64,000 nucleotides of DNA, from NCBI GenBank assembly GCA_964398665.1, contig CAYNNN010000002.1, positions 929 to 64,928 of the forward strand, given 5' to 3'. This document shows positions 22,466-49,241 of the stretch, piece by piece. The position numbers and the translations under genes are program-made. The notes beneath the pieces were generated by a model. The model was given only the letters and a program-made list of their open reading frames with translations, ran no database searches and was not told the origin of the DNA. How positions within the stretch are numbered: position 1 is the first letter of the stretch; the number at the start of each line of letters is the position of its first letter. Origin of the DNA: an uncultured Gammaproteobacteria bacterium (GTDB lineage: Bacteria > Pseudomonadota > Gammaproteobacteria > CAYNNN01).

Positions 22466-23631
22466 CCGACTTTACGCACCGCCAGCACGCCATTGATGGC
22501 TGCAATCTGGGCCAGGATGTCTGCGGTCAGCGGGGTGTTGACATCCACCAGGGTATAGGCCAGATCGCCTCGGGAGCGGTTGACAATTTCGCTGATGTTG
22601 ATGCCCGCCGTGCCCAGATCGGAGGTCAGCTGGCCCAGCATGTTGGGCACATTGGCATTGACCACCGCCAGCCGGCAGCAACCCTCGGACTTGGGCATGG
22701 CCACTTCCGGGAAATTCACCGAATTGCGGATATTGCCATTCTCCAGATAATCCCGCACCTGATCGGCCACCATCACTGCACAGTTTTCTTCGGCTTCTTC
22801 GGTAGAAGCCCCGATATGCGGCAAGGCGATGACTTTGGAATGGTCCTTGATCAGGTTATTTGGGAAATCACAGACATAAGCCCGGAGTTTATCGCTGTCC
22901 AGCCCGGCCAGCACGGCCGCATCATCCACAATGCCATAACGGGCAAAGTTCAGGATCACGGCGCCCTTTTTCAAGAGCTTGATCCGATCCTCGTTCAACA
23001 GGTTCCTGGTTGCGTTGTTGAGCGGCACATGGAACGTGATGAAATCCGAGCGCATCAGCAAATCATCGAGGCTCAGGGCCTGCTGCACCTGTGCGGACAA
23101 CTGCCAGGCACCCTGGACGGTAATGCCGGGGTCATAACCGATGACCTTCATACCTAAGGCAATCGCGGCGTTAGCCACTTTGACCCCGATGGCACCCAGA
23201 CCCACCACACCCAGGGTGCGGTTGGGTAGCTCAAATCCGGCAAAACGCTTTTTCTCTTTTTCCATCTGGGCATTCATGCTGGCGTCATCGCCCTGCAGGG
23301 TGCGCGCATATTGCCAGGCTGCGCCGATATTGCGATAGGCCATCAGCATCCCGGCCAGCACCAGTTCTTTCACGGCATTGGCATTGGCACCGGGGGCATT
23401 GAACACCACCACGCCCCGCTGGCTGCACTTGTCCACGGGGATGTTGTTGACCCCGGCACCCGCCCGCCCGATGGCCACCACCGAACCCGGCAGCTCCAGC
23501 GCGTGCATATTGTGCGAGCGCACCAGAATCGCATCAGGATGCGCGATCTCGGAGGCCACTTCGTAGCGATCACGTGGCAGACGTTCCAGCCCGGCGACCG
23601 AAATATTATTCAACGTGAGAATTTTGAACAT
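22462..23631 (-). CDS. serA: D-3-phosphoglycerate dehydrogenase (with C-terminal ACT domain)
   Basis: 2-hydroxyacid dehydrogenase NAD motif GLGAIGVKVA, catalytic HIGASTEEA, ACT tail. Start at MFKILT. Confidence 0.85.
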   Translation of the reverse strand: MFKILTLNNISVAGLERLPRDRYEVASEIAHPDAILVRSHNMHALELPGSVVAIGRAGAGVNNIPVDKCSQRGVVVFNAPGANANAVKELVLAGMLMAYRNIGAAWQYARTLQGDDASMNAQMEKEKKRFAGFELPNRTLGVVGLGAIGVKVANAAIALGMKVIGYDPGITVQGAWQLSAQVQQALSLDDLLMRSDFITFHVPLNNATRNLLNEDRIKLLKKGAVILNFARYGIVDDAAVLAGLDSDKLRAYVCDFPNNLIKDHSKVIALPHIGASTEEAEENCAVMVADQVRDYLENGNIRNSVNFPEVAMPKSEGCCRLAVVNANVPNMLGQLTSDLGTAGINISEIVNRSRGDLAYTLVDVNTPLTADILAQIAAINGVLAVRKVG

Positions 23632-37370: not shown

Positions 37371-37465
37371 AAGTGGCCTGCGTCACTAGACGCTACCCAT
37401 TTTGGCGACTATAGTTAGCAGGGCCGATGCGGTGGCGTCCCGCAGCCGGTCCTGTACCAAGGAGC

Positions 37466-37870
37466 ATGATAGTGACCACAGAAGCAAGCGTGAATATCTC
37501 CGGGCTAAAAGTCATGGTAATTGACGATAGTAAAACTATTCGTCGTACCGCGGAAACCCTGCTCAAGAAGGAAGGGTGTGAAGTGATCACGGCGACGGAT
37601 GGGTTCGAAGCCTTGGCCAAAATCGCAGATTCTCATCCGGACGTCATCTTCGTGGACATCATGATGCCCCGTCTGGATGGCTATCAGACCTGTGCCCTGA
37701 TCAAGCATAACCGCACCTTCAAGCACACGCCGGTGATCATGCTGTCCAGCAAGGATGGCCTGTTTGATCGGGCCCGCGGCAAGATCGTCGGCTCGGAGCA
37801 ATACCTGACCAAGCCCTTCACCAAGGATGAACTGCTGGACGCCATCACCCGCCATGTCCACAAGACCTGA
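37466..37870 (+). CDS. pilG: Twitching-motility response regulator PilG (CheY-like)
   Basis: Receiver domain (VMVIDDS ... DVIFVDIMMP ... LSSK). Position and sequence match PilG of Pil-Chp systems. Start trimmed to the ATG at 37466. Confidence 0.8.
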   Translation: MIVTTEASVNISGLKVMVIDDSKTIRRTAETLLKKEGCEVITATDGFEALAKIADSHPDVIFVDIMMPRLDGYQTCALIKHNRTFKHTPVIMLSSKDGLFDRARGKIVGSEQYLTKPFTKDELLDAITRHVHKT

Positions 37871-37886
37871 AGCAGGGTAGGCCATC

Positions 37887-38252
37887 ATGTTGCGTGTGCT
37901 GGTTGTCGATGATTCCGAAGCGGATGCCCAGTTCATGAAAGTATTGCTGGAAAAGTCAGGCTATCAGGTGGCCGTGGCCCATACGCTGGATCAGGCGATG
38001 GCCGCCCTGCGGCGGGAGCCGATCAGCCTGATCCTGATGGATGTCGTCCTGCCGGGTGCCAGTGGCTTCCAGGCCACGCGCACCCTGAGTAAGGATCCAC
38101 AGACTCATGATATTCCAATCATTCTGGTGAGCGCCAAATCCCAGGAAACCGACCGGGTCTGGGGATTACGTCAGGGAGCGCGGGATTACGTACGCAAGCC
38201 CGTTGACCCGACGGAGCTTGTGGCCAAGGTACGCAACATCATTGGAGGTTAG
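37887..38252 (+). CDS. pilH: Twitching-motility response regulator PilH (CheY-like)
   Basis: Receiver domain (VLVVDDSEAD ... LILMDVVLP ... VSAK) directly after pilG. Confidence 0.8.
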   Translation: MLRVLVVDDSEADAQFMKVLLEKSGYQVAVAHTLDQAMAALRREPISLILMDVVLPGASGFQATRTLSKDPQTHDIPIILVSAKSQETDRVWGLRQGARDYVRKPVDPTELVAKVRNIIGG

Positions 38253-38257
38253 GCGAA

Positions 38258-38821
38258 ATGGCAACAGCAACCCACTCCTTGACCGCTGCTCAGATGACGC
38301 CTTTTGCCCTACTGCTGGCGCTGGAACAGCGGGCCTTGCAGGATGCGCTGCCGTTACCTCAGGAAATAGAAATTCGCAGGGAATGGGTTGGGGTTGCCTT
38401 CCGTCTCGGTGAAACCTCATTTGTTGCCAGCCTGAACGAGGTAATCGAATTGCTGTCGTATCCGGTCGTGACGCGGGTACCCGCGACCAAGGGCTGGGTG
38501 CGTGGACTGGCCAACGTACGTGGTTCGTTGCTGCCGGTGGCGGATTTGGCGGGCTTTTTCTTTGCCAGGAATGGCGAGCTGACCAAGCGTAGCCGGGTTC
38601 TGGTGGTCTCCCAGCAAGGCGTGCGGGCCGGTTTACTGGTGGATGAAGTTCTGGGTTTGCGACATTTTTTTGAAGATGACCGAACTGCGCCTCCTGCGCA
38701 CCTGCATGGGCGCGTCCAGGAATTGCTGAGTTCCGGGTTTCGGCAGGGCGGAATCACGTGGCCAGTGCTGAGCATCCAGCGACTGACCGAGTTCCCGGAT
38801 TTTTTACAAGCGGCGTTATAG
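38258..38821 (+). CDS. pilI: CheW-like coupling protein PilI
   Basis: CheW-domain architecture. Position between pilH and pilJ. Confidence 0.65.
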   Translation: MATATHSLTAAQMTPFALLLALEQRALQDALPLPQEIEIRREWVGVAFRLGETSFVASLNEVIELLSYPVVTRVPATKGWVRGLANVRGSLLPVADLAGFFFARNGELTKRSRVLVVSQQGVRAGLLVDEVLGLRHFFEDDRTAPPAHLHGRVQELLSSGFRQGGITWPVLSIQRLTEFPDFLQAAL

Positions 38822-38901
38822 CCCTGATTATCAATCATTATCAATATAGAGAGGCGTGCGATGCGAAGGGTTGTTGACTTGCAGTTGGCGGGAGGGCAGC
38901 A

Positions 38902-40959
38902 ATGATTACCACGACAACTGATGCCAAACGGCAGATTATTGGTAGTGCGGTCAAAATTACCGCCGGGGTATTGATGGCCGTCATCCTGACCGCCCTGGGC
39001 GTGTTCATGTGGATTGCCTACCTCGACAGAAACGACCGCTTGTACGTCAGCTATGCCAATGAACAGCGATTGCTGGCCCAGTCCATCGCCAAATACACCC
39101 TGGGGGCTGCGGTGGGCGACGACAAGCTGTTTGCCAAACTGAAGGAGGGCCGGGATCGCTTTGATCAGACTCTGGCCGTTCTCAGGCAGGGCGATCCCAG
39201 TGTGCCGTTTTACCTGCCCCCCTCTTCCCCTGCCGTCACGGACTATGTGCAGCAGGTCGAAAAACAATGGGAAGAACTGCGCAATCAGGCTGATCAGGTG
39301 TTGAAGGCCAAAAGCGGCATTCTGACCGTGCGCGAGCTGGTTTCGGTGGTCACCGAATTTATCCCCCAGCTGGAAAAATATTCCACAGAAATTGCCGATT
39401 TGCTGGTGCAGAAAAAGGCCAAGCCCGAACAGATTTTCGTCGCAACCCGGCAACTGATGCTGGCCCAGCGTCTGGAAAACAATGTCAATCGCGTGTTGGC
39501 TGGCAAGGGTGACTCAGCTCAGGCTGCCGAAGGGTTTGCCCAGGACGCCGAAGAATTTGGTGTCGTACTGGAAGGCATGTTGCGAGGCAATGCCGAGCGC
39601 AAGATCGAGAAAGTGGCCGATGCCAGCGCCGATCAGAAATTGCGCGAAATTGCCATGCTGTTCAGTACAGTGAGCGAACATGCCAAGGAAATTATCGAGT
39701 TGGCTCCGGAAGTCCTGCCTGCGCAGGTGGCTGCCTCGCGGGTGACGGAGCTGAGCGAGAAACTGGGCGACGCCACGGGTCTGCTGGCGCAGGTCTATGA
39801 GCGTCAGGTAGGTCGGCCCGGCATTCCCGGCACCGATATTGTGGTAGGCCCCTGGCTGGTGATTTTCCTCGGCGTCATGGCGGGCTTGCTGGCCGTGGTT
39901 CTGGCCATCCAGTTCATCTACGACGCCCGGCGGCGTGAGGCACTCAGTGCCGAACAAAATCAGCGGAATCAACAGGCCATTTTGCGACTGCTGGACGAAA
40001 TGGGCGATTTGGCAGACGGGGATCTCACCGTGACTGCCACAGTGACCGAAGACGTGACCGGGGCTATCGCCGACTCGATCAACTACGCCATCGAAGCCTT
40101 GCGTAGTCTGGTCACCACCATTAACAGCACGACCGAACGGGTTTCAGGTGCTGCAGAGTCCACCCGCTCCACAGCCATGCAGCTGGCTGATGCCAGCACC
40201 CATCAGGCCGAGCAGATTTCCACGGCAACCGAGGTCATCAACCGCATGGCAGACTCGGTGAACGCCATTTCCAAACGTGCCCTGGACACTGCGTTGGCCG
40301 CCCAGAACGCCGTGCGGATCGCCAACAAGGGCGCTGATACCGTGCGCCGTACCATTCAGGGTATGGACGCCATCCGTGAGCAGATTCAGGAGACCTCGAA
40401 GCGGATTAAACGCCTGGGTGAAAGCTCCCAGGAAATCGGTGATATCGTGGAACTCATTGACGACATTGCGGACCAGACCAACATTCTGGCCTTGAACGCA
40501 GCCATGCAGGCCGCCATGGCCGGTGAAGCGGGCCGGGGCTTTGCCGTGGTTGCCGATGAAGTGCAACGCCTTGCAGAACGTTCCAGTAATGCAACCAAGC
40601 AGATTGAAGCCCTGGTCAAAACCATTCAGGCAGATACCAAGGAAGCGGTGAGTTCGATGGAACAAACCACGGCCGGGGTCGTCAACGGGGCGCGACTGGC
40701 TGAAGACGCCGGTGATGCCCTGCAGGAAATCGAATCGGTATCCACCCAGATTGCCGGTCTGATTCAAGAGTTTGCAAAGGCCACTGAAGAACAGTCCCAG
40801 GCGGCGGTTTCCGTGAACGATACCATGCACGTCATTCTGGAAATCAGCACCCAGACAACCGAGGGCAGTAGCGAAACGGCACGCTCCATTGGTGAGCTGG
40901 CTGATTTGGCAGTTGACCTCAGGCGGTCGGTCTCGGGCTTCAAGCTGCCTGAGATGTAA
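38902..40959 (+). CDS. pilJ: Methyl-accepting chemotaxis protein PilJ
   Basis: N-terminal TM and periplasmic region, HAMP, and the highly conserved MCP signalling domain (QTNILALNAAMQAAMAGEAGRGFAVVADEVQRLAERS). Confidence 0.85.
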   Translation: MITTTTDAKRQIIGSAVKITAGVLMAVILTALGVFMWIAYLDRNDRLYVSYANEQRLLAQSIAKYTLGAAVGDDKLFAKLKEGRDRFDQTLAVLRQGDPSVPFYLPPSSPAVTDYVQQVEKQWEELRNQADQVLKAKSGILTVRELVSVVTEFIPQLEKYSTEIADLLVQKKAKPEQIFVATRQLMLAQRLENNVNRVLAGKGDSAQAAEGFAQDAEEFGVVLEGMLRGNAERKIEKVADASADQKLREIAMLFSTVSEHAKEIIELAPEVLPAQVAASRVTELSEKLGDATGLLAQVYERQVGRPGIPGTDIVVGPWLVIFLGVMAGLLAVVLAIQFIYDARRREALSAEQNQRNQQAILRLLDEMGDLADGDLTVTATVTEDVTGAIADSINYAIEALRSLVTTINSTTERVSGAAESTRSTAMQLADASTHQAEQISTATEVINRMADSVNAISKRALDTALAAQNAVRIANKGADTVRRTIQGMDAIREQIQETSKRIKRLGESSQEIGDIVELIDDIADQTNILALNAAMQAAMAGEAGRGFAVVADEVQRLAERSSNATKQIEALVKTIQADTKEAVSSMEQTTAGVVNGARLAEDAGDALQEIESVSTQIAGLIQEFAKATEEQSQAAVSVNDTMHVILEISTQTTEGSSETARSIGELADLAVDLRRSVSGFKLPEM

Positions 40960-41004
40960 GACTGGATTGGAACAGGGTTTGTGGAGTTAGGGCGGGAGCA
41001 GGCA

Positions 41005-44000
41005 ATGAGTCATGGCGCGCTGAATTGGGTCAAGAAGGAGCTTGATGAAACCCTCAAACTGGCCAGTCAGACCCTGGAAGAATATGTCGAGGGGGGGCGT
41101 GATGCCGCCTTGCTGCAACAAAGTGCCCTGCATCTGCATCAGGCCTATGGCACGCTGCAGATGGTGGAAGTTTACGGCGCAGCCCAGCTGGCCGAGGAGC
41201 TGGAAATTACCCTCCAGGCCTTGGCACGTGGCGAGCTGGGCCAGGCTGGGCACGATGCTTATGAGGTGCTTGCCCGCGCAGTGTTGCAGCTTCAGGAGTA
41301 TCTGAATCGCGTCCACGCGGGCCAGGCAGACACTCCGGCCGTCTTGCTGCCTTTGCTCAATGATTTACGTGCGTTGCGCGGTGTTGCGCTGCTTTCTGAG
41401 GGGGCACTGTTTCCGCTGGATCTGACTCCCCTGGAGACCCAGCCACCAGGGGTCAAACCGGCCCGTCTGGCAGCGCCTCAGGCTGCAGCGATGGTCAAGC
41501 GGCTGCGGACGTTCTACCAATTGGGCTTGCTAGGCTGGCTGCGCGGTCAGGAGATGGACAAGAATCTGGGTCAGCTGGAGCAAAGTCTGCTCCAGCTTGC
41601 TCAACTGGCGACCCAGGCTTCCGTAGCGCATCTGTGGTGGATTAGCGCAGGATTGGTGGAAGCGCTGCGGCGGCGAGGCCTGGATTCCACAACGGCCGTA
41701 CGGGTGCTGCTGGGTCAGATCGATCGGCAGATTCGCCGCCTGAGCGAAGAAAACGAAGCGGCTCTGGTGCGCGAACCCGCGACCGGGCTTTATAAAAATC
41801 TGTTGTACTATCTAGCCCAGGCGCGCGTGCAGTCCACGCTGATTACCCAGATCAAACAACTTTTTGCACTTGACACCCTGTTACCGGGCATTGCACAGCT
41901 TGAATCGGCACGCAACAATCTCCTGAGCCCTGATGCCGGGGTCATGCACACGGTCCTGACCGCCATCAAGGAAGATATGGCCGGAGTCAAGGATGGTCTG
42001 GAGACATTTGCCCGCCAGACTCAGGCGCCTGAAGCGCTCCGCCCCTTGCTGGATGCCTTGCGCAAGGTCTCGGATACGTTGGGGCTGCTGGGCTATGGTG
42101 CCCTGAGACGGCGGGTTCAACAGCAGATTTTGCGTTTGCAGCAACTGATGGAAGCAGGCGGCGAAATTGATGAAACTGCCCTGATGCAGGTGGCTGGTGA
42201 GCTGCTGTATGTAGAATCTTCACTCGGTGGCGCACCTACTGCAGTTCATGCGGCCAACACGGCGGTCTATGCTTCCCATGAAGACGAACCCCTGGTGCCC
42301 GAGGCGGAATTTCAGACCGTGCGGGCCGTCACCATGCGCGAGGTCATGCTGGACCTGAGCAAGGCCAAGGACGGTGTGATTGCTTTCAACTCCACGGGCC
42401 AGAAGGAACTCCTGGAACTTGCCCCTCAGTACCTGCGTGGAGTGCGGGGGGTCATGGAGATGATGGAGCTGGGCCGAGCCGCCGCCGTGGTACTGCGTAT
42501 TGCCGATTATATCCAGCAGGAACTGCTGACTGCTGCGCACTTGACGCCCAAGGTCGTGGAATGGGTGGCAGAAGCCCTCTCAGGCGTTGAATATTATCTG
42601 GAAACGGTGCAGCAGCAGCTTCCGGATCATACAGATAGCCTTGGTCAAGCCGAGGCGCGGCTGGCCAATCTGACCCAGGGACCGGTATCGGAGGCAACGG
42701 TATCACCTCCGCCGGTGCCCACAGCCCCTGTGGTTCAAGCGCCCCCGACCATATCTGCTGGTGCAGCAGTCCCGCAGCCTGAAGTCACGCCGACCAGCAC
42801 CCTTCCCGTATGGCCCGCTGACCAGATTGACGAAGAAATTTTTGATATTTTCCTGGAAGAAGCCAACGAAGTGGTGGCTTCCCTGCAAACCTACTGGCCG
42901 CGCTGGCGCGCCGATGCAGAACAGCGTGATGCGCTGGTGACGGTCCGCCGGGGTTTCCATACCCTCAAAGGCAGTGGCCGGATGGCAGGAGCCCATGGCC
43001 TGGGCGAGCTGGCCTGGGCAGCGGAGAGTTTGTTGAACCGGGTCCTGGACGGCACGCTTACAGCAAGCCAGATGACGGGCCAGGCACTGGATGCAGTCGT
43101 GGATCTGCTGCCCCAGATGCTGGAAGCACTGGCGCGGCATCAAGCCGTTCCGGATCAGGCGCCCGTGTTGGCTGCGCATGTACAGGCACTGGTGCGTGGT
43201 GAGGCCAGCACCTTGGCGCCGGCGCAGAGGGACACAGGGCTGGTTGTCACTGAAGCAGCACCTGGCCCTGACCTGGCACCTGATACCACGACGCTGGCAG
43301 CAGCGCCGATAGCACCTGATGAAGTGGACACGCTGATTGTCGATCTGGATTCGGGCGCGGCTGAGGCGCCTGTCACCGGACCTGAAGCGACCGCTGAACC
43401 TGAGGCAGCCCCACCTGCCGTAACCGCCCCACCCGTACCACAACCGTTGGTCCTGGATGTGGACGATGAGATCCTGGAAATCTTCCTGGAAGAGGCACAG
43501 GAAGTGGTTGGAACCTTGAACGAATATTTCCCGCAATGGCGCGCCGATACGCAGGATCACGAGGCGCTGACCACAATACGCCGAGGATTTCATACCCTCA
43601 AGGGTAGTGGACGCATGGTGGGTGCCAAGGTGCTGGGTGAGCTGGCCTGGTCTATCGAGAACATGCTCAACCGGGTACTGGATGGCAGCATTCAACCCGG
43701 CCCGGTCCTGATGGCAACGATTGAAGCATCCATTAGCGCGTTCCCGGTACTGCTGGAGAGCCTGCAAGCCCGCTTGCAGGCTACGCTGGATGTCGAACCG
43801 ATTGCCCAGCGGGCCCACGCCCTGAGCCGGGGAGAGGTAGTAGCCGAACCGGTTGTGGCTCCACCGGTTTCCACACCGGTTGCAGCATCCGATGTCTCTC
43901 CGGTCACTGAACCTGTGCCCGTTGCGGAACCGGAGTTCATCTGGGATGTTCCGGCTGAATCCGTCCCTGCCACCTTACCGGTGGCGGATGTTGCCCCAGC

Positions 44001-47000
44001 CGAGGCAGAACCTGACTGGGTGTCGCCTGTGCTGGCGGATCCGGCACCGGTCCTGGAATGGGAACTACCGGCACCGGTTGCAAAACCCGAGGCTGTAGCA
44101 CCAGCCGACGAGGCGTTGCCCGAGCCACTGGCGACAGATACAGTGGTCCAGCTGCCAGTGCCGTCAGAAATCCCGCTGCCCCCTACGCATACGGCAGAGG
44201 AACCACCGGCCATTCCGGAAGCGGCTGTGGAGGAAGTTCCGGCACCTGTCGCTACCCCGTTGCCTGCAACCGCGCTTGATGACCTTGATGAATCGGATGC
44301 CCGGCCTGAGCCGCTGCTGATGGACGAAGCACTGTATGAAATATTCAGCATCGAAGCAAAGGCGCACCTCGCGGTCATCGAAGAATTTTTACTCCATTGT
44401 CAACAGTCGGCAGTGCCATGCCGAGGCAGTGATGTCCTGGTGCGGGCCATTCACACTCTGCATGGCAGTGCCCATATGGCCGGCGCCAAGGATATTGCTG
44501 AAATCAGCGGGGGGCTGGAATCGGCATTACGTGGCTACATTGCTCACCAGATGTCGTTTGATGCAGCGTTACTGGGCTTGCTGGAGTCCGGTCTGGAAAA
44601 GGTGGCGCAGGCTTTGGCCTGTATCAACCAGCCTGACAAGCGCCCGCCCAATGCCCAGCCCTTGATAGAAGCGCTGCGCCGGTTCAACGAGGCGATGCAG
44701 GCCAGGCTGGCAGGTGCCAACGCTGTGACCACAGCCCCTGCCGAGGTGCAGCCAGTGGCTGAACATGCTGTGGCCAGTGGCCTGCCACCCGCACCAGATG
44801 AAGAGTTGCTGGCGATTTTCCTGAGCGAGAACCAGGATATCCTTGAGGCACTGAATACGGCGGTCGATGCCTGGCGGGATCGCACCCATGACAGCCTGCT
44901 GGCGATGGAACTACAACGTCTGCTGCATACCCTCAAGGGAAGCGCGCGCCTGGTTGGTTTTCAGTCCATGGGGGATCTGGCTCAGGCATTGGAAGGGTTG
45001 GTGGGTGCTTCGATCCAGCGACATGAACCATTGCCCCAGCAAGCACTGGCGCTGGTTCATACTGCCCTGGAACGGCTGGCCGATATGCTAGACGAGATCG
45101 CCCAGGGTGCCACGCCCGGCCCGGCGGATACCCTGGTAGCCGAGCTATATGCGCAGGGCGTGACACCAGTCACTTATGAAGAAACGGCCCTGGCACCGGT
45201 GGTGGTGCCTGAGGGCACACTACCGGATGAAGCAGCGGCGGTCATACCCACAGCAGAAGAAACGGCCCTGGCACCGGTGGTGGTGCCTGAGGACACACTG
45301 CCGGATGAAGCAGCGGCGGTCATACCCACAGCAGAGGACGCCGTCTTGGCGGATACCGAAGCTGCACCGCCATCAAACTGGCCTGAAGCACATGGCGTTG
45401 ATGGCCAGCTGTCTGATGCAGTTCCGGATGATCGGGCACAGGCAGCATTGCCCGAGGCTGAGCAGATGCCTGAGCCGGTATTGCCGCCGGTGGTCGAGTT
45501 GCAGCCCGTGGTCCAGGAAACCCATCCGGTGGCGGCATTGGAAGAACCCGTTTCCGAATGGGTTATGCCTGAATCTGCCCCCGCCTTGCGGGCCATGCCG
45601 GAATCCGGGGCTGAGGCACTACCCGAACCGATGGCAGAAGCGGTACCTCCGTCCGATGCAGCGACCGAAGCAACACCCGCACCATCAGCACAGCTGACGG
45701 ATATACCGGAAGCCTGGGTGCCGGCGGAAGTGACGCCAGCGGTGATGTCGGCAGGATCCCCCTTATCCGTCGGGGGTACGCAGCCCCTGGCCTTGCCAGG
45801 CGAGGATACTGAGGTTGAAACCTATGATACGGCACTCATCGAAGTGTTCCAGGATGAGGGCAAGGAGCTGCTGGACGGCCTGGATCAGGCCTTTGGTCTA
45901 TGGCGTGCCGAACCCGAGGATACCACACAGCACGCCTTGATTCAGCGCCTGCTGCATACCCTGAAGGGCAGCGCTCGCCTCGTGGGCCTGATGGGTGTAG
46001 GCGACCTGACCCATGCCCTGGAAACGCTGATCATTGAGGTCCAGCAAGGCCGCAAACCCGCAGACGCCGAAATCATGCACCTGGCCCAGCAGGCCCTGGA
46101 TCACTACGCACTGACCTTCGAGCGTCTGCTACGGGGTGAGACCCTATATCGTCCCCAACGTCTGATCCAGGCGCTCGAACAGCAGGGCCAGAGCATCGTT
46201 ACCGCACCCACGCCTGCACCGGTACCACCACCGGTCATCCTGCCGGTCGTCGAGGTCGAGGGCGATCTGGACGGTGAATATGACGTCAATCTTATCAATA
46301 TCTTCCTTGAAGAAAGTCGTGATATTCTGGATAACCTTGAACCAGTCTTTACAGCCTGGTGTGAAATCCCTCAGGATGCTGCGGTCAGCGCCCAGTTCAA
46401 GCGTGCCCTGCACACGCTGAAAGGGGGGGCACGCCTGGTCGGAATCACTTCCCTGGGTGATCTGAGTCACGCGCTGGAAACGGCAGTCAACACGGTAGGC
46501 GAACAGAATCTGGCCGTGGATCCACCCTTGCAAGCTTTGTTACGTCGGACACTGGACGTCATCAATGCGGCCCTGGAAGTGGTGGCACGCGGTGACCGTG
46601 CCCGTCGCCCGTCGGCCCTGATCCATGCCTTGGAGCGGATTGGCCAGGCTGCGGATGCCGAAGTCACCCAAGTGCCGGTTCCAAGCAAATCCGTACCCCC
46701 CCCGGAGGCTGTGCGGCCCCAGCCGGCAGCCGAACCCGCCACACCCACCGCTGCGTCCGCCACCCGTACTCCGCAAGAGCAAGTGCGGGTGCGGGCCGAC
46801 CTGCTGGATAACCTGGTCAATTTTGCTGGTGAAATCAGCATCTACCGTGCGCGTTTGGAGCAACAGTGGAGTCTGCTGAAATTCAACCTGGCAGAATTTG
46901 AACAGACCACGCGCCGCCTGCGGGAACAATTGCGCAAGATGGAGCTGGAAACAGAAGCTCAGGTCTTGTTCCGTTACGAACGTGAAGGTGGACATGAGAA

Positions 47001-48612
47001 ATTTGCCGAGTTCGATCCGCTGGAAATGGATCGCTACTCCACGATGCAACAACTTTCCAGGGCACTGAGCGAAAGCGTCTCGGATCTGGATAACCTGCAT
47101 CGGCTCATGAGCGACAGCGGGCGCGATGCCGAAACCTTGCTGCTGCAACAATCGCGGGTCAATACCGAGTTGCAGGAAGGACTGATGCGCACCCGCATGG
47201 TGCCCTTTGCCAGTCTGGTACCCCGGCTCCGGCGTCTGGTGCGGCAAACTGCCGATAGCGTCGGGAAGCGGGCTGAACTGGATGTCATTGGAGCCGAAGG
47301 TGAAATGGATCGCACCATTCTGGATAGAATCACGGCACCGCTGGAACATTTGCTGCGCAATGCCCTGGCGCACGGGGTGGAAACACCGGCTGACCGGGTT
47401 GCGGTCGGTAAGCCGGAGGTGGGCAAAATCACGCTGTTGCTGGCACGTGAAGGTGCTGAAATCGTCATCGAGATCGCTGATGACGGACGTGGCATAGATC
47501 CGACAGCCATCCGCCGCAAGGCCATCCAGATGGGGTTGCTGCGCCCGGAGACGGTGATTAGTGAAGTGGAATTGATTCAGTTCATTCTGGAATCCGGCTT
47601 CAGCACCGCCAAAGATGTGAGCCAGATCGCGGGCCGGGGCGTCGGGATGGACGTGGTGAACAGCGAGATCAAGCAAATGGGCGGCACGCTGGGCATCAAA
47701 TCCCAGGTTGGCGTAGGCAGCCGGTTCATCATCAACCTGCCGCTGACCCTGGCCATCAACCAGGCCATCATGGTCTATGTCGGGGAAGACGTCTTTGCTG
47801 TTCCGCTGGCCGCCCTGGAAGGCATCATCCGGGTTTCCCAGCAGGACCTGCTACGTTGTTACGAAAGCGACCGCGAGCATATCCAGTATGCAGGCAAGGA
47901 CTATCAGGTCAAACACCTGGGTAGCTTGCTGGGCACGATGGAAAACAAGTTCCCCGAACAGAAACGCTGGTATCCCCTGCTGCTGGTGCGCAGTGGTGAT
48001 TACCGCGTTGGTCTGCATGTGGAGGGCTTGCTGGGCAACCGCGAAGTGGTGATCAAGCCGGTCGGGCCGCAATTGAGTACGGTGCGCTGGATTTCAGGCG
48101 CGACCATTCTGGCCGATGGCCGGGTGGTCTTGATTCTTGATATCGGCACCATCTCCCGGATGCGCACCACGGTGCGGACCGTGGCGGAAGCCGACACGCG
48201 GGTACCGGCCGTTGAGGAGGCACCGCCGGTTCGCCAGGTCAAGGTACTGGTGGTGGACGACTCCATCACGGTGCGTAAGGTGACGGGTCGGGTACTGGAG
48301 CGCTACGGGATGGAAGTCATGACCGCCAAAGACGGTATCGAAGCCCTGACCACGCTCCAGGAATATATCCCGGACATCATGTTGCTGGATATTGAAATGC
48401 CGCGCATGGACGGATTTGAACTGGCCCGGAACATCCGTAATGCCGAACATCTGAAGCATATCCCCATCATCATGATCACCTCGCGTACGGGAGACAAACA
48501 CCGGCAACGGGCTATGGAGCTGGGTGTGAACGACTATATCGGCAAACCCTTCCAGGAAGCTGATTTAATCTCACATATCAATGCCTTGGTTGGAAGTGGG
48601 GCTACAGCATGA
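41005..48612 (+). CDS. chpA: Chemosensory pili hybrid histidine kinase ChpA/PilL, 2,537 aa, with multiple Hpt-like domains, CheA catalytic core, CheW domain and C-terminal receiver
   Basis: At least six Hpt-like cores (FHTLKGSGRMAGA, FHTLKGSGRMVGA, IHTLHGSAHMAGA, LHTLKGSARLVGF, LHTLKGSARLVGL, LHTLKGGARLVGI). HATPase motifs (GRGIDP, GRGVGMDVV, GVGSRF), CheW-like region and REC (VLVVDDSITVRK...MLLDIEMP). Start trimmed to the ATG at 41005. Confidence 0.9.
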   Translation: MSHGALNWVKKELDETLKLASQTLEEYVEGGRDAALLQQSALHLHQAYGTLQMVEVYGAAQLAEELEITLQALARGELGQAGHDAYEVLARAVLQLQEYLNRVHAGQADTPAVLLPLLNDLRALRGVALLSEGALFPLDLTPLETQPPGVKPARLAAPQAAAMVKRLRTFYQLGLLGWLRGQEMDKNLGQLEQSLLQLAQLATQASVAHLWWISAGLVEALRRRGLDSTTAVRVLLGQIDRQIRRLSEENEAALVREPATGLYKNLLYYLAQARVQSTLITQIKQLFALDTLLPGIAQLESARNNLLSPDAGVMHTVLTAIKEDMAGVKDGLETFARQTQAPEALRPLLDALRKVSDTLGLLGYGALRRRVQQQILRLQQLMEAGGEIDETALMQVAGELLYVESSLGGAPTAVHAANTAVYASHEDEPLVPEAEFQTVRAVTMREVMLDLSKAKDGVIAFNSTGQKELLELAPQYLRGVRGVMEMMELGRAAAVVLRIADYIQQELLTAAHLTPKVVEWVAEALSGVEYYLETVQQQLPDHTDSLGQAEARLANLTQGPVSEATVSPPPVPTAPVVQAPPTISAGAAVPQPEVTPTSTLPVWPADQIDEEIFDIFLEEANEVVASLQTYWPRWRADAEQRDALVTVRRGFHTLKGSGRMAGAHGLGELAWAAESLLNRVLDGTLTASQMTGQALDAVVDLLPQMLEALARHQAVPDQAPVLAAHVQALVRGEASTLAPAQRDTGLVVTEAAPGPDLAPDTTTLAAAPIAPDEVDTLIVDLDSGAAEAPVTGPEATAEPEAAPPAVTAPPVPQPLVLDVDDEILEIFLEEAQEVVGTLNEYFPQWRADTQDHEALTTIRRGFHTLKGSGRMVGAKVLGELAWSIENMLNRVLDGSIQPGPVLMATIEASISAFPVLLESLQARLQATLDVEPIAQRAHALSRGEVVAEPVVAPPVSTPVAASDVSPVTEPVPVAEPEFIWDVPAESVPATLPVADVAPAEAEPDWVSPVLADPAPVLEWELPAPVAKPEAVAPADEALPEPLATDTVVQLPVPSEIPLPPTHTAEEPPAIPEAAVEEVPAPVATPLPATALDDLDESDARPEPLLMDEALYEIFSIEAKAHLAVIEEFLLHCQQSAVPCRGSDVLVRAIHTLHGSAHMAGAKDIAEISGGLESALRGYIAHQMSFDAALLGLLESGLEKVAQALACINQPDKRPPNAQPLIEALRRFNEAMQARLAGANAVTTAPAEVQPVAEHAVASGLPPAPDEELLAIFLSENQDILEALNTAVDAWRDRTHDSLLAMELQRLLHTLKGSARLVGFQSMGDLAQALEGLVGASIQRHEPLPQQALALVHTALERLADMLDEIAQGATPGPADTLVAELYAQGVTPVTYEETALAPVVVPEGTLPDEAAAVIPTAEETALAPVVVPEDTLPDEAAAVIPTAEDAVLADTEAAPPSNWPEAHGVDGQLSDAVPDDRAQAALPEAEQMPEPVLPPVVELQPVVQETHPVAALEEPVSEWVMPESAPALRAMPESGAEALPEPMAEAVPPSDAATEATPAPSAQLTDIPEAWVPAEVTPAVMSAGSPLSVGGTQPLALPGEDTEVETYDTALIEVFQDEGKELLDGLDQAFGLWRAEPEDTTQHALIQRLLHTLKGSARLVGLMGVGDLTHALETLIIEVQQGRKPADAEIMHLAQQALDHYALTFERLLRGETLYRPQRLIQALEQQGQSIVTAPTPAPVPPPVILPVVEVEGDLDGEYDVNLINIFLEESRDILDNLEPVFTAWCEIPQDAAVSAQFKRALHTLKGGARLVGITSLGDLSHALETAVNTVGEQNLAVDPPLQALLRRTLDVINAALEVVARGDRARRPSALIHALERIGQAADAEVTQVPVPSKSVPPPEAVRPQPAAEPATPTAASATRTPQEQVRVRADLLDNLVNFAGEISIYRARLEQQWSLLKFNLAEFEQTTRRLREQLRKMELETEAQVLFRYEREGGHEKFAEFDPLEMDRYSTMQQLSRALSESVSDLDNLHRLMSDSGRDAETLLLQQSRVNTELQEGLMRTRMVPFASLVPRLRRLVRQTADSVGKRAELDVIGAEGEMDRTILDRITAPLEHLLRNALAHGVETPADRVAVGKPEVGKITLLLAREGAEIVIEIADDGRGIDPTAIRRKAIQMGLLRPETVISEVELIQFILESGFSTAKDVSQIAGRGVGMDVVNSEIKQMGGTLGIKSQVGVGSRFIINLPLTLAINQAIMVYVGEDVFAVPLAALEGIIRVSQQDLLRCYESDREHIQYAGKDYQVKHLGSLLGTMENKFPEQKRWYPLLLVRSGDYRVGLHVEGLLGNREVVIKPVGPQLSTVRWISGATILADGRVVLILDIGTISRMRTTVRTVAEADTRVPAVEEAPPVRQVKVLVVDDSITVRKVTGRVLERYGMEVMTAKDGIEALTTLQEYIPDIMLLDIEMPRMDGFELARNIRNAEHLKHIPIIMITSRTGDKHRQRAMELGVNDYIGKPFQEADLISHINALVGSGATA
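45178..45333 (+). repeat. Near-perfect in-frame 78-bp tandem duplication (2 copies) inside a chpA linker
   Basis: Unit 1 at 45178-45255 and unit 2 at 45256-45333 differ at ~2-3 nt. They encode EETALAPVVVPE(G/D)TLPDEAAAVIPTA twice. Confidence 0.85.
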
Positions 48613-49115
48613 TCAGTCAGCGTCCCAGTCTGGCAGCTGCGGTGGCAAAAGCAGGCGCCCTACGCTGTCTGTTGCTACCCATAGAAGACGGACATTTGAT
48701 TCTGCCCAATGCGGCAGTGCGGGAAGTCTTGGGCTACCGGCAGGTACAGCCGCTGGCCGGCGCTCCCAACTGGCTGCAAGGCATGTTGACCTGGCATCAG
48801 CAACGTGTGCCGGTTGTGAGCTTTGAGGCTCTGTGTGGCCGGGCTTGGCGTGGCCAGGGAGAACGCAAGCGGATCGTAATTTGTGCGGCCCTACGCGGCA
48901 AAGCCGATCTGGGTTTTTTCGGGATTGTGGCGGCAAACAACCCCAAATTACTGAAAACAGAGGAAGAATCAATCAAGCCCATTACTGGCCACACAGCGCA
49001 TGCCCCGGTCGTACTGCAATGGGCCTTGGCCTTTGGCGAAGAAGTGATGATTCCCGACCTGGAACGCATTGAAGACTTGCTGCGAGAACAGCGCCGGGTT
49101 GGTGTGAAATTATGA
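48609..49115 (+). CDS. chpC: CheW-like protein ChpC
   Basis: ATGA overlap with the chpA stop. CheW-like domain. Position as in pilGHIJ-chpA-chpC clusters. Confidence 0.6.
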   Translation: MISQRPSLAAAVAKAGALRCLLLPIEDGHLILPNAAVREVLGYRQVQPLAGAPNWLQGMLTWHQQRVPVVSFEALCGRAWRGQGERKRIVICAALRGKADLGFFGIVAANNPKLLKTEEESIKPITGHTAHAPVVLQWALAFGEEVMIPDLERIEDLLREQRRVGVKL

Positions 49116-49166
49116 TCTTCATTGACTTCAGACTGCTAGCCCGTTAGAATCCCGGTTCCCCCCTCG

Positions 49167-49241
49167 GGGCGATTAGCTCAGCGGTAGAGCACTGCCTTCA
49201 CACGGCAGGGGTCGCAGGTTCGAACCCTGCATCGCCCACCA
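49167..49241 (+). tRNA. tRNA-Val (anticodon CAC), with encoded CCA
   Basis: Manual fold. Acceptor GGGCGAT/ATCGCCC, D-stem GCTC/GAGC, anticodon stem CTGCC/GGCAG with loop TTCACAC (anticodon CAC), T-arm GCAGG-TTCGAAC-CCTGC, discriminator A. Close to E. coli tRNA-Val. Confidence 0.85.

Follow-up and report, generated by a model that had tools for sequence, protein, structure and literature searches.

A 78-bp in-frame tandem duplication in the predicted disordered Hpt4-Hpt5 tether of a ChpA-type kinase

Tfp-class CheA kinases have an architecture described in earlier work (PMC10782961 and PMC5812489). In P. aeruginosa ChpA (PA0413)/PilL, multiple Hpt domains (eight or nine Xpt) are followed by dimerisation, ATPase and CheW domains and a C-terminal receiver, and there is no P2 domain. 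The chpA gene is preceded by two receiver genes, a CheW gene and a gene for a PilJ-type MCP, with CheR (pilK) placed between pilJ and chpA, and it is followed by CheB and by a second CheW gene. The kinase core of the P. aeruginosa protein phosphorylates the proximal Hpt domains, and the distal Hpt domains receive their phosphoryl groups via the receiver domain (PMC5812489).

The phosphotransfer domains of CheA proteins are mobile and are joined to the catalytic core by the P1-P2 and P2-P3 linkers, which are A/P/E-rich and of low complexity. The lipoyl-domain linkers of 2-oxo-acid dehydrogenase E2 chains are comparable flexible Ala/Pro-rich tethers. Long linkers have been noted in CheA (PMC10782961). 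Proteins whose spacers change in length are also known: 'periscope proteins' (PMC8201768) are described as surface proteins in which numerous, highly identical repeats of folded domains lengthen or shorten a spacer, in-frame tandem repetition altering the length of the gene, with documented variation between strains. As to how such repeats arise, microhomology-flanked tandem duplications are reported to be the dominant class in bacteria, with arms of at least 3 nt far exceeding random expectation (bioRxiv 10.64898/2026.02.28.708716), and microhomology-mediated tandem duplications are described as reversible (PMC8639346).

We describe here a gene of the ChpA type with a duplicated linker segment, located in a 64-kb window (the whole stretch of DNA that was analysed, 64,000 nucleotides). 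The gene occupies positions 40981..48612 of the forward strand and is a 2543-codon ORF containing six Hpt domains, H-kinase_dim, HATPase_c, CheW and Response_reg. The copy of the protein in the database (P0001) is 8 residues shorter than the ORF, at 2535, a difference consistent with initiation at the ATG at 41005. Six stretches match the Pfam Hpt family (PF01627, E 1.9e-80), and there are six H[T]L[KH]G motifs, at ORF residues 660, 871, 1158, 1316, 1659 and 1811. The CheA core families PF02895, PF02518 and PF01584, corresponding to the dimerisation (P3), HATPase_c (P4) and CheW-like (P5) domains, are all above the Pfam cut-offs, NCBIfam CheA models match residues 2022-2402, and the C-terminal receiver (PF00072) spans residues 2422-2533 (E 6e-30). 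No P2 (CheY-binding) family is present among the Pfam matches of the ORF at E <= 0.01. The domain order is thus that of P. aeruginosa ChpA, but with six His-containing Pfam Hpt domains in place of eight or nine Xpt.

The gene neighbourhood is likewise similar. On the forward strand, chpA is preceded by a PilG-like receiver gene (37427-37870), a PilH-like receiver gene (37887-38252), a PilI-like CheW gene (38258-38821) and an MCP gene whose product has a PilJ N-terminal domain (PF13675; 38902-40959), and is followed by a ChpC-like gene with a CheW domain (48609..49115, +) that overlaps the chpA stop by 4 nt. The cluster differs from that of P. aeruginosa in having no CheR (pilK) gene between pilJ and chpA, where the gap is 21 nt, and no CheB (chpB) gene after chpA, a statement that concerns the cluster itself. 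The whole Pil-Chp cluster, including a tRNA-Val(CAC) that comes after the second CheW gene, is compact and extends over 37427-49241. Several homologues carry the JGI name 'chemosensory pili system protein ChpA'. Judged from this domain architecture, the Pil-gene neighbourhood and the names of the homologues, assignment of the host protein to the ChpA-type (Tfp-class) CheA kinases, and with it the label chpA given in the first-pass annotation, is justified.

That annotation had also reported, inside chpA, two adjacent 78-bp units differing by '~2-3 nt' that duplicate in frame a 26-aa Pro/Ala/Glu-rich linker segment, and our analysis bears out this description in each part. Tandem Repeats Finder identifies a repeat at 45178-45335 with a period of 78, 2.0 copies, 97% matches, no indels and a score of 302. 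Copy 1 (45178..45255, +) encodes ORF residues 1400-1425 (EETALAPVVVPEGTLPDEAAAVIPTA) and copy 2 (45256..45333, +) encodes residues 1426-1451 (EETALAPVVVPEDTLPDEAAAVIPTA). Direct alignment of the two copies, which lie head to tail with no spacer and no indels, gives 76/78 identical positions, and so the copies differ at exactly 2. Both differences are transitions: at unit position 38 a G in copy 1 is an A in copy 2 (45293), changing GGC (Gly) to GAC (Asp), and at unit position 45 an A in copy 1 is a G in copy 2 (45300), a silent CTA/CTG difference in a Leu codon. The repeat is in frame with the ORF (45178-40981 = 4197 = 3 x 1399).

A repeat of this kind is exceptional in its surroundings. Elsewhere in the gene, identity at an offset of 78 averages 23.5 +/- 6.2 of 78 and the maximum, 76, is the repeat site. 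The 28-nt core of the unit has 2 matches in the window and 0 in 100 shuffles, and no other tandem repeat in the window has a Tandem Repeats Finder score >55. A binomial estimate of chance occurrence for the whole window is about 1e-34, and a chance origin of the repeat is excluded. An older, degenerate third copy finds no support either, the unit matching the next 78 nt at 29/78 positions and the previous 78 nt at 26/78, both within the 23.5 +/- 6.2 background.

It was further suggested in the first-pass annotation that the repeat might be an assembly artefact, the true genome having either one copy (a spurious expansion) or more than two (a collapse). Assemblers are known to have difficulty with short tandem repeats, and the one NCBI contig that carries the protein (92 kb) has no second assembly beside it. 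Against this, the copies can be told apart at two sites, the sequence across the junction (ACAGCA|GAAGAA) is unique and must exist in the reads, and the reading frame is kept through the whole 2543-codon ORF. Moreover, no k-mer longer than 37 nt is exactly repeated, and therefore k >=39, or any read of 100-150 nt, resolves the structure. Since the copies differ at two sites, their junction is unique and exact repetition stops at 37 nt, we regard an artefact as very unlikely, although a collapse from 3 or more copies is possible.

The repeat lies between two phosphotransfer domains. We modeled residues 1241-1773 with AlphaFold2 from single sequence input, and the model consists of two helical bundles separated by 224 residues that have pLDDT <50 and no secondary structure. 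The first bundle corresponds to Hpt4 (44800..45153, +; residues 1274-1391), which has its phospho-His motif HTLKG at 44926, and the second to Hpt5 (45829..46191, +; residues 1617-1737), with HTLKG at 45955. The Ala/Pro/Glu/Val-rich tether between them, predicted to be disordered, covers 45163..45834 (+; residues 1395-1618). The repeat (residues 1400-1451) begins 9 residues past the last predicted Hpt4 helix, and the 26-aa unit has a pLDDT of about 33-36 and no secondary structure in the same model. The duplication is thus predicted, with low pLDDT as an indirect indicator of disorder, to sit in an intrinsically disordered tether. On one side of this tether lie the distal domains Hpt1-4, and on the other the Hpt5-6 pair, next to the kinase core.

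With A+P+E+V making up about 60% of its residues, the tether resembles the other four inter-Hpt linkers in composition but exceeds them all in length (223 aa with roughly drawn boundaries, vs 32-167 aa for the others). The spacing between the Hpt4 and Hpt5 histidines, 343 aa, falls in the top 8% of 350 spacings from 120 homologues, in which successive Hpt histidines lie 135 to 627 aa apart (median 174). Given this range, linker length is not conserved. The tether is like the P1-P2 and P2-P3 linkers of CheA in being A/P/E-rich, of low complexity and unstructured in prediction, and in joining mobile phosphotransfer domains to the catalytic core. It differs from those of the classical CheA proteins and from E2 linkers in being much longer (~224 aa), and its flexibility is predicted.

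In-frame tandem repeats in the linkers are usual in ChpA kinases. We searched the homologues for tandem repeats with periods of 12-120 aa and an identity of 70% or more, using five local-composition shuffles as a control. Tandem repeats were present in 5/119 other ChpA homologues (6/120 counting the window protein), as compared with 0/120 in each of the five shuffles. The repeats include a 40-aa unit in 2.2 copies (P0035) and a perfect 14-aa unit in 2.9 copies (P0074). Those of P0021, P0035, P0074 and P0109 fall outside the Hpt domains, a placement that covers four of the five other homologues with repeats, P0104 being the fifth. At the nucleotide level, Tandem Repeats Finder identifies in-frame repeats with units of 18, 30, 54 and 72 nt in the chpA linkers of 3/4 related loci (L001, L002 and L003). 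Among these are repeats at L003 8579-8703 (18 nt x 6.2 copies), L002 8498-8607 (18 nt x 5.6), L001 8961-9093 (72 nt x 1.9) and L001 9546-9606 (30 nt x 2). The three chpA genes are 47-53% identical to that of the window, and their repeat units have no sequence relation to its 78-nt unit.

The recurrence of linker repeats in ChpA homologues, some with 3-6 copies, and the wide variation of Hpt spacing among them would fit a contingency-like variable-number repeat, in which unequal recombination alters tether length among strains and so fine-tunes the relay of phosphoryl groups between the distal and the proximal Hpt domains. Unequal exchange or slippage can act on two 78-bp copies that are 97% identical. 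However, there are only 2.0 copies, the mismatches leave no identical block longer than 37 nt, and one unit is predicted to have a small physical effect. Contingency loci normally have short units in many copies and reside in surface or restriction-modification genes, not in those of cytoplasmic kinases. We therefore consider such a role very improbable. Extended to ChpA-type kinases in general, it would make the Hpt4-Hpt5 tether a copy-number-variable module in which 26-aa units are gained and lost by unequal exchange, altering the distance of Hpt1-4 from the kinase core and receiver. If true, this would mean strain-wise tuning of phosphoryl flow between PilG/PilH-directed and sink pathways, and a cytoplasmic counterpart of the variable-length 'periscope' surface proteins; we rate it as extremely improbable. 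In contrast to periscope proteins, the window protein is a cytoplasmic kinase with two copies of a 26-aa unit predicted to be unstructured, and it is known from one sequence.

A different kind of advantage would follow if the 26-aa unit contained a short linear motif, putatively docking PilG/PilH, FimL/FimV or another partner, whose amplification was selected. Non-phosphorylatable regions of ChpA have been proposed as protein-binding scaffolds (PMC12632253), and the duplication has persisted long enough to acquire two substitutions. Set against this, the unit shares its low-complexity A/P/E/V composition with the other linkers, it shows no secondary structure at its pLDDT of about 33-36 in the single-sequence model, and there is no sign of purifying selection, since one of the two changes (Gly to Asp) is non-synonymous. 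Queries with the linker alone or with Hpt4 plus the repeat returned no close relative, a weak point in that they also missed P0001. We judge selection for such a motif to be very doubtful.

The sequence at the edges of the array bears on how it arose. The array has the form [unit][unit]GA, the match running 2 nt past copy 2 and 0 nt leftward, and so the 2-nt 'GA' at 45334..45335 (+), defined by the Tandem Repeats Finder end at 45335 and by analysis of the junction, copies the first two bases of the unit and could be a microhomology arm. Over 17 nt, the start of the unit agrees with the bases that follow (GAGGACGCCGTCTTGGC) at 11/17 positions, and just 1.6% of windows at offset 78 do as well; the unit start is also homeologous to the post-array sequence at 4/6 positions (GA[A/G]GA). 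We propose that replication slippage or microhomology-mediated duplication may have taken place between the unit start (GAAGA...) and similar bases 78 nt downstream (GAGGA...), and that the duplicated unit would then have been fixed and gained two transitions. A slippage/microhomology origin is the most likely one for the 78-bp duplication. The arrangement is like that of microhomology-mediated or slipped-strand duplications in that the copies lie head to tail without a spacer and the first bases of the unit recur after the array. It is unlike them in that the exact arm is 2 nt, which makes the assignment over an arm-less duplication a weak one: an arm of this length has a chance expectation of about 1/16 (~6% of duplications), and the mechanism is therefore weakly indicated. 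The event is old enough for the copies to be 2.6% diverged, and so the original arm may have decayed.

Other mechanisms were considered. Hairpin-driven slippage, which could have involved the GGCACC...GGTGCC pair within the unit, finds no support, since the fold is ordinary (z = -1.41; 19/200 shuffles fold at least as well). A diversity-generating retroelement was rejected: the differences run in opposite directions (G>A, A>G) and are not confined to the adenines of one copy. Nor did the scanned ORFs, which are most of those in ~10 kb upstream and ~7 kb downstream, give a match to reverse transcriptase in a family scan, as opposed to a dedicated RT search. These neighbouring ORFs match SDR, cyclase, Pil-Chp, CheW and carbamoyltransferase families, with a tRNA-Val among them, and 49426-50022 matches no family. 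A CRISPR array and a target-site duplication are ruled out, spacer and intervening element being absent.

The two copies diverge by 2/78 (2.6%, 95% CI 0.3-9.3%). From the two substitutions acquired, and with rates of 1e-6 to 1e-9 per site per year, the event is roughly 1e4-1e7 years old, an estimate that is too low if gene conversion acted between the copies. The first-pass description of the duplication as 'very recent' stands in the sense that it is far younger than the split from the available relatives; it does not hold in the sense of an event within the sequenced culture, sample or population, in view of the two substitutions. Tandem repeats of 78 bp are prone to deletion, and the survival of this one for the time needed to collect two substitutions might be a sign that selection has kept it.

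Lengthening by one unit would take the tether from ~198 to ~224 residues (+26 aa, about 13%). Treating it as a random coil, we calculate that 26 additional residues give about 6-8% more rms reach and an effective local concentration about 17-20% lower. This predicted physical effect is small, and the duplication is therefore regarded as probably near neutral, neutrality being an assumption. Taking the evidence together, we consider it very likely that the repeat is a genuine and young in-frame 78-bp tandem duplication in the disordered Hpt4-Hpt5 tether of a ChpA/PilL kinase, with slippage or microhomology as its most likely origin and probably near neutral in its effect. It is a real, ordinary small duplication and a fresh instance of a well-known type of event, and has little importance beyond annotation. 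Nevertheless, the chpA of the window carries a candidate 26-aa insertion-type polymorphism, and it provides one clean, datable case of the disordered linkers of multi-Hpt ChpA proteins growing by in-frame tandem duplication. The 78-bp duplication is not among the features described for ChpA, and our literature search found no report of in-frame tandem variants of chpA in P. aeruginosa isolates. Given conspecific genomes, the site could serve as a strain marker by PCR sizing and as a natural test of how far the ChpA phosphorelay tolerates changes in tether length.

The available relatives are distant. In the protein collection the sole 100% match is P0001, from a cluster of one member and one NCBI contig (92,025 bp), and the next best matches have about 50% identity. 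They belong to uncultured Gammaproteobacteria or Chromatiales MAGs and to Thiohalobacter, Thiohalophilus, Thiogranum and Marinobacter. Among species-representative loci, the best are in MAGs that carry the label Gammaproteobacteria or Chromatiales, with 47-53% identity, and a scan of genome contigs gave no relative above ~53% protein identity. Metagenome scans with peptide patterns around the repeat and with the exact 28-nt core yielded no match, and an exact look-up of the ORF protein and of P0001 turned up no recorded contig. The two negative results for parts of the ORF, one for the linker alone and one for Hpt4 plus the repeat, are weak, both searches having missed even the identical P0001; unlike these sub-fragments, the full-length ORF query did return P0001, and negatives from short low-complexity queries do not amount to absence.

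Some further features of the sequence deserve mention. The sole other repeat in the window with a Tandem Repeats Finder score >50 is a 19-nt unit at 23296-23333 (2.0 copies, 84% matches), whose period would break the reading frame if the region were coding. Two ORFs overlap the linker, one in another frame of the forward strand (45176-45697; 173 aa) and one on the reverse strand (45174-45596; 140 aa). The former has its ATG 2 nt before the repeat, and its predicted peptide is very Arg/Trp-rich. Both are unlikely to be genes and are taken as shadow ORFs, the chpA frame being continuous with homologous Hpt domains on both sides; the GC1 of 0.85 results from the Ala, Pro, Glu and Val codons in the chpA frame.

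Lastly, Hpt1 (residues ~612-732) and Hpt2 (~823-943), which are spaced 633 nt apart, share 54% protein identity, whereas other Hpt pairs share 24-41%. Around their His motifs, 42958-43013 and 43591-43646 are 79% identical over 56 nt. This likeness points to an older and larger internal duplication of a whole Hpt-plus-linker module.
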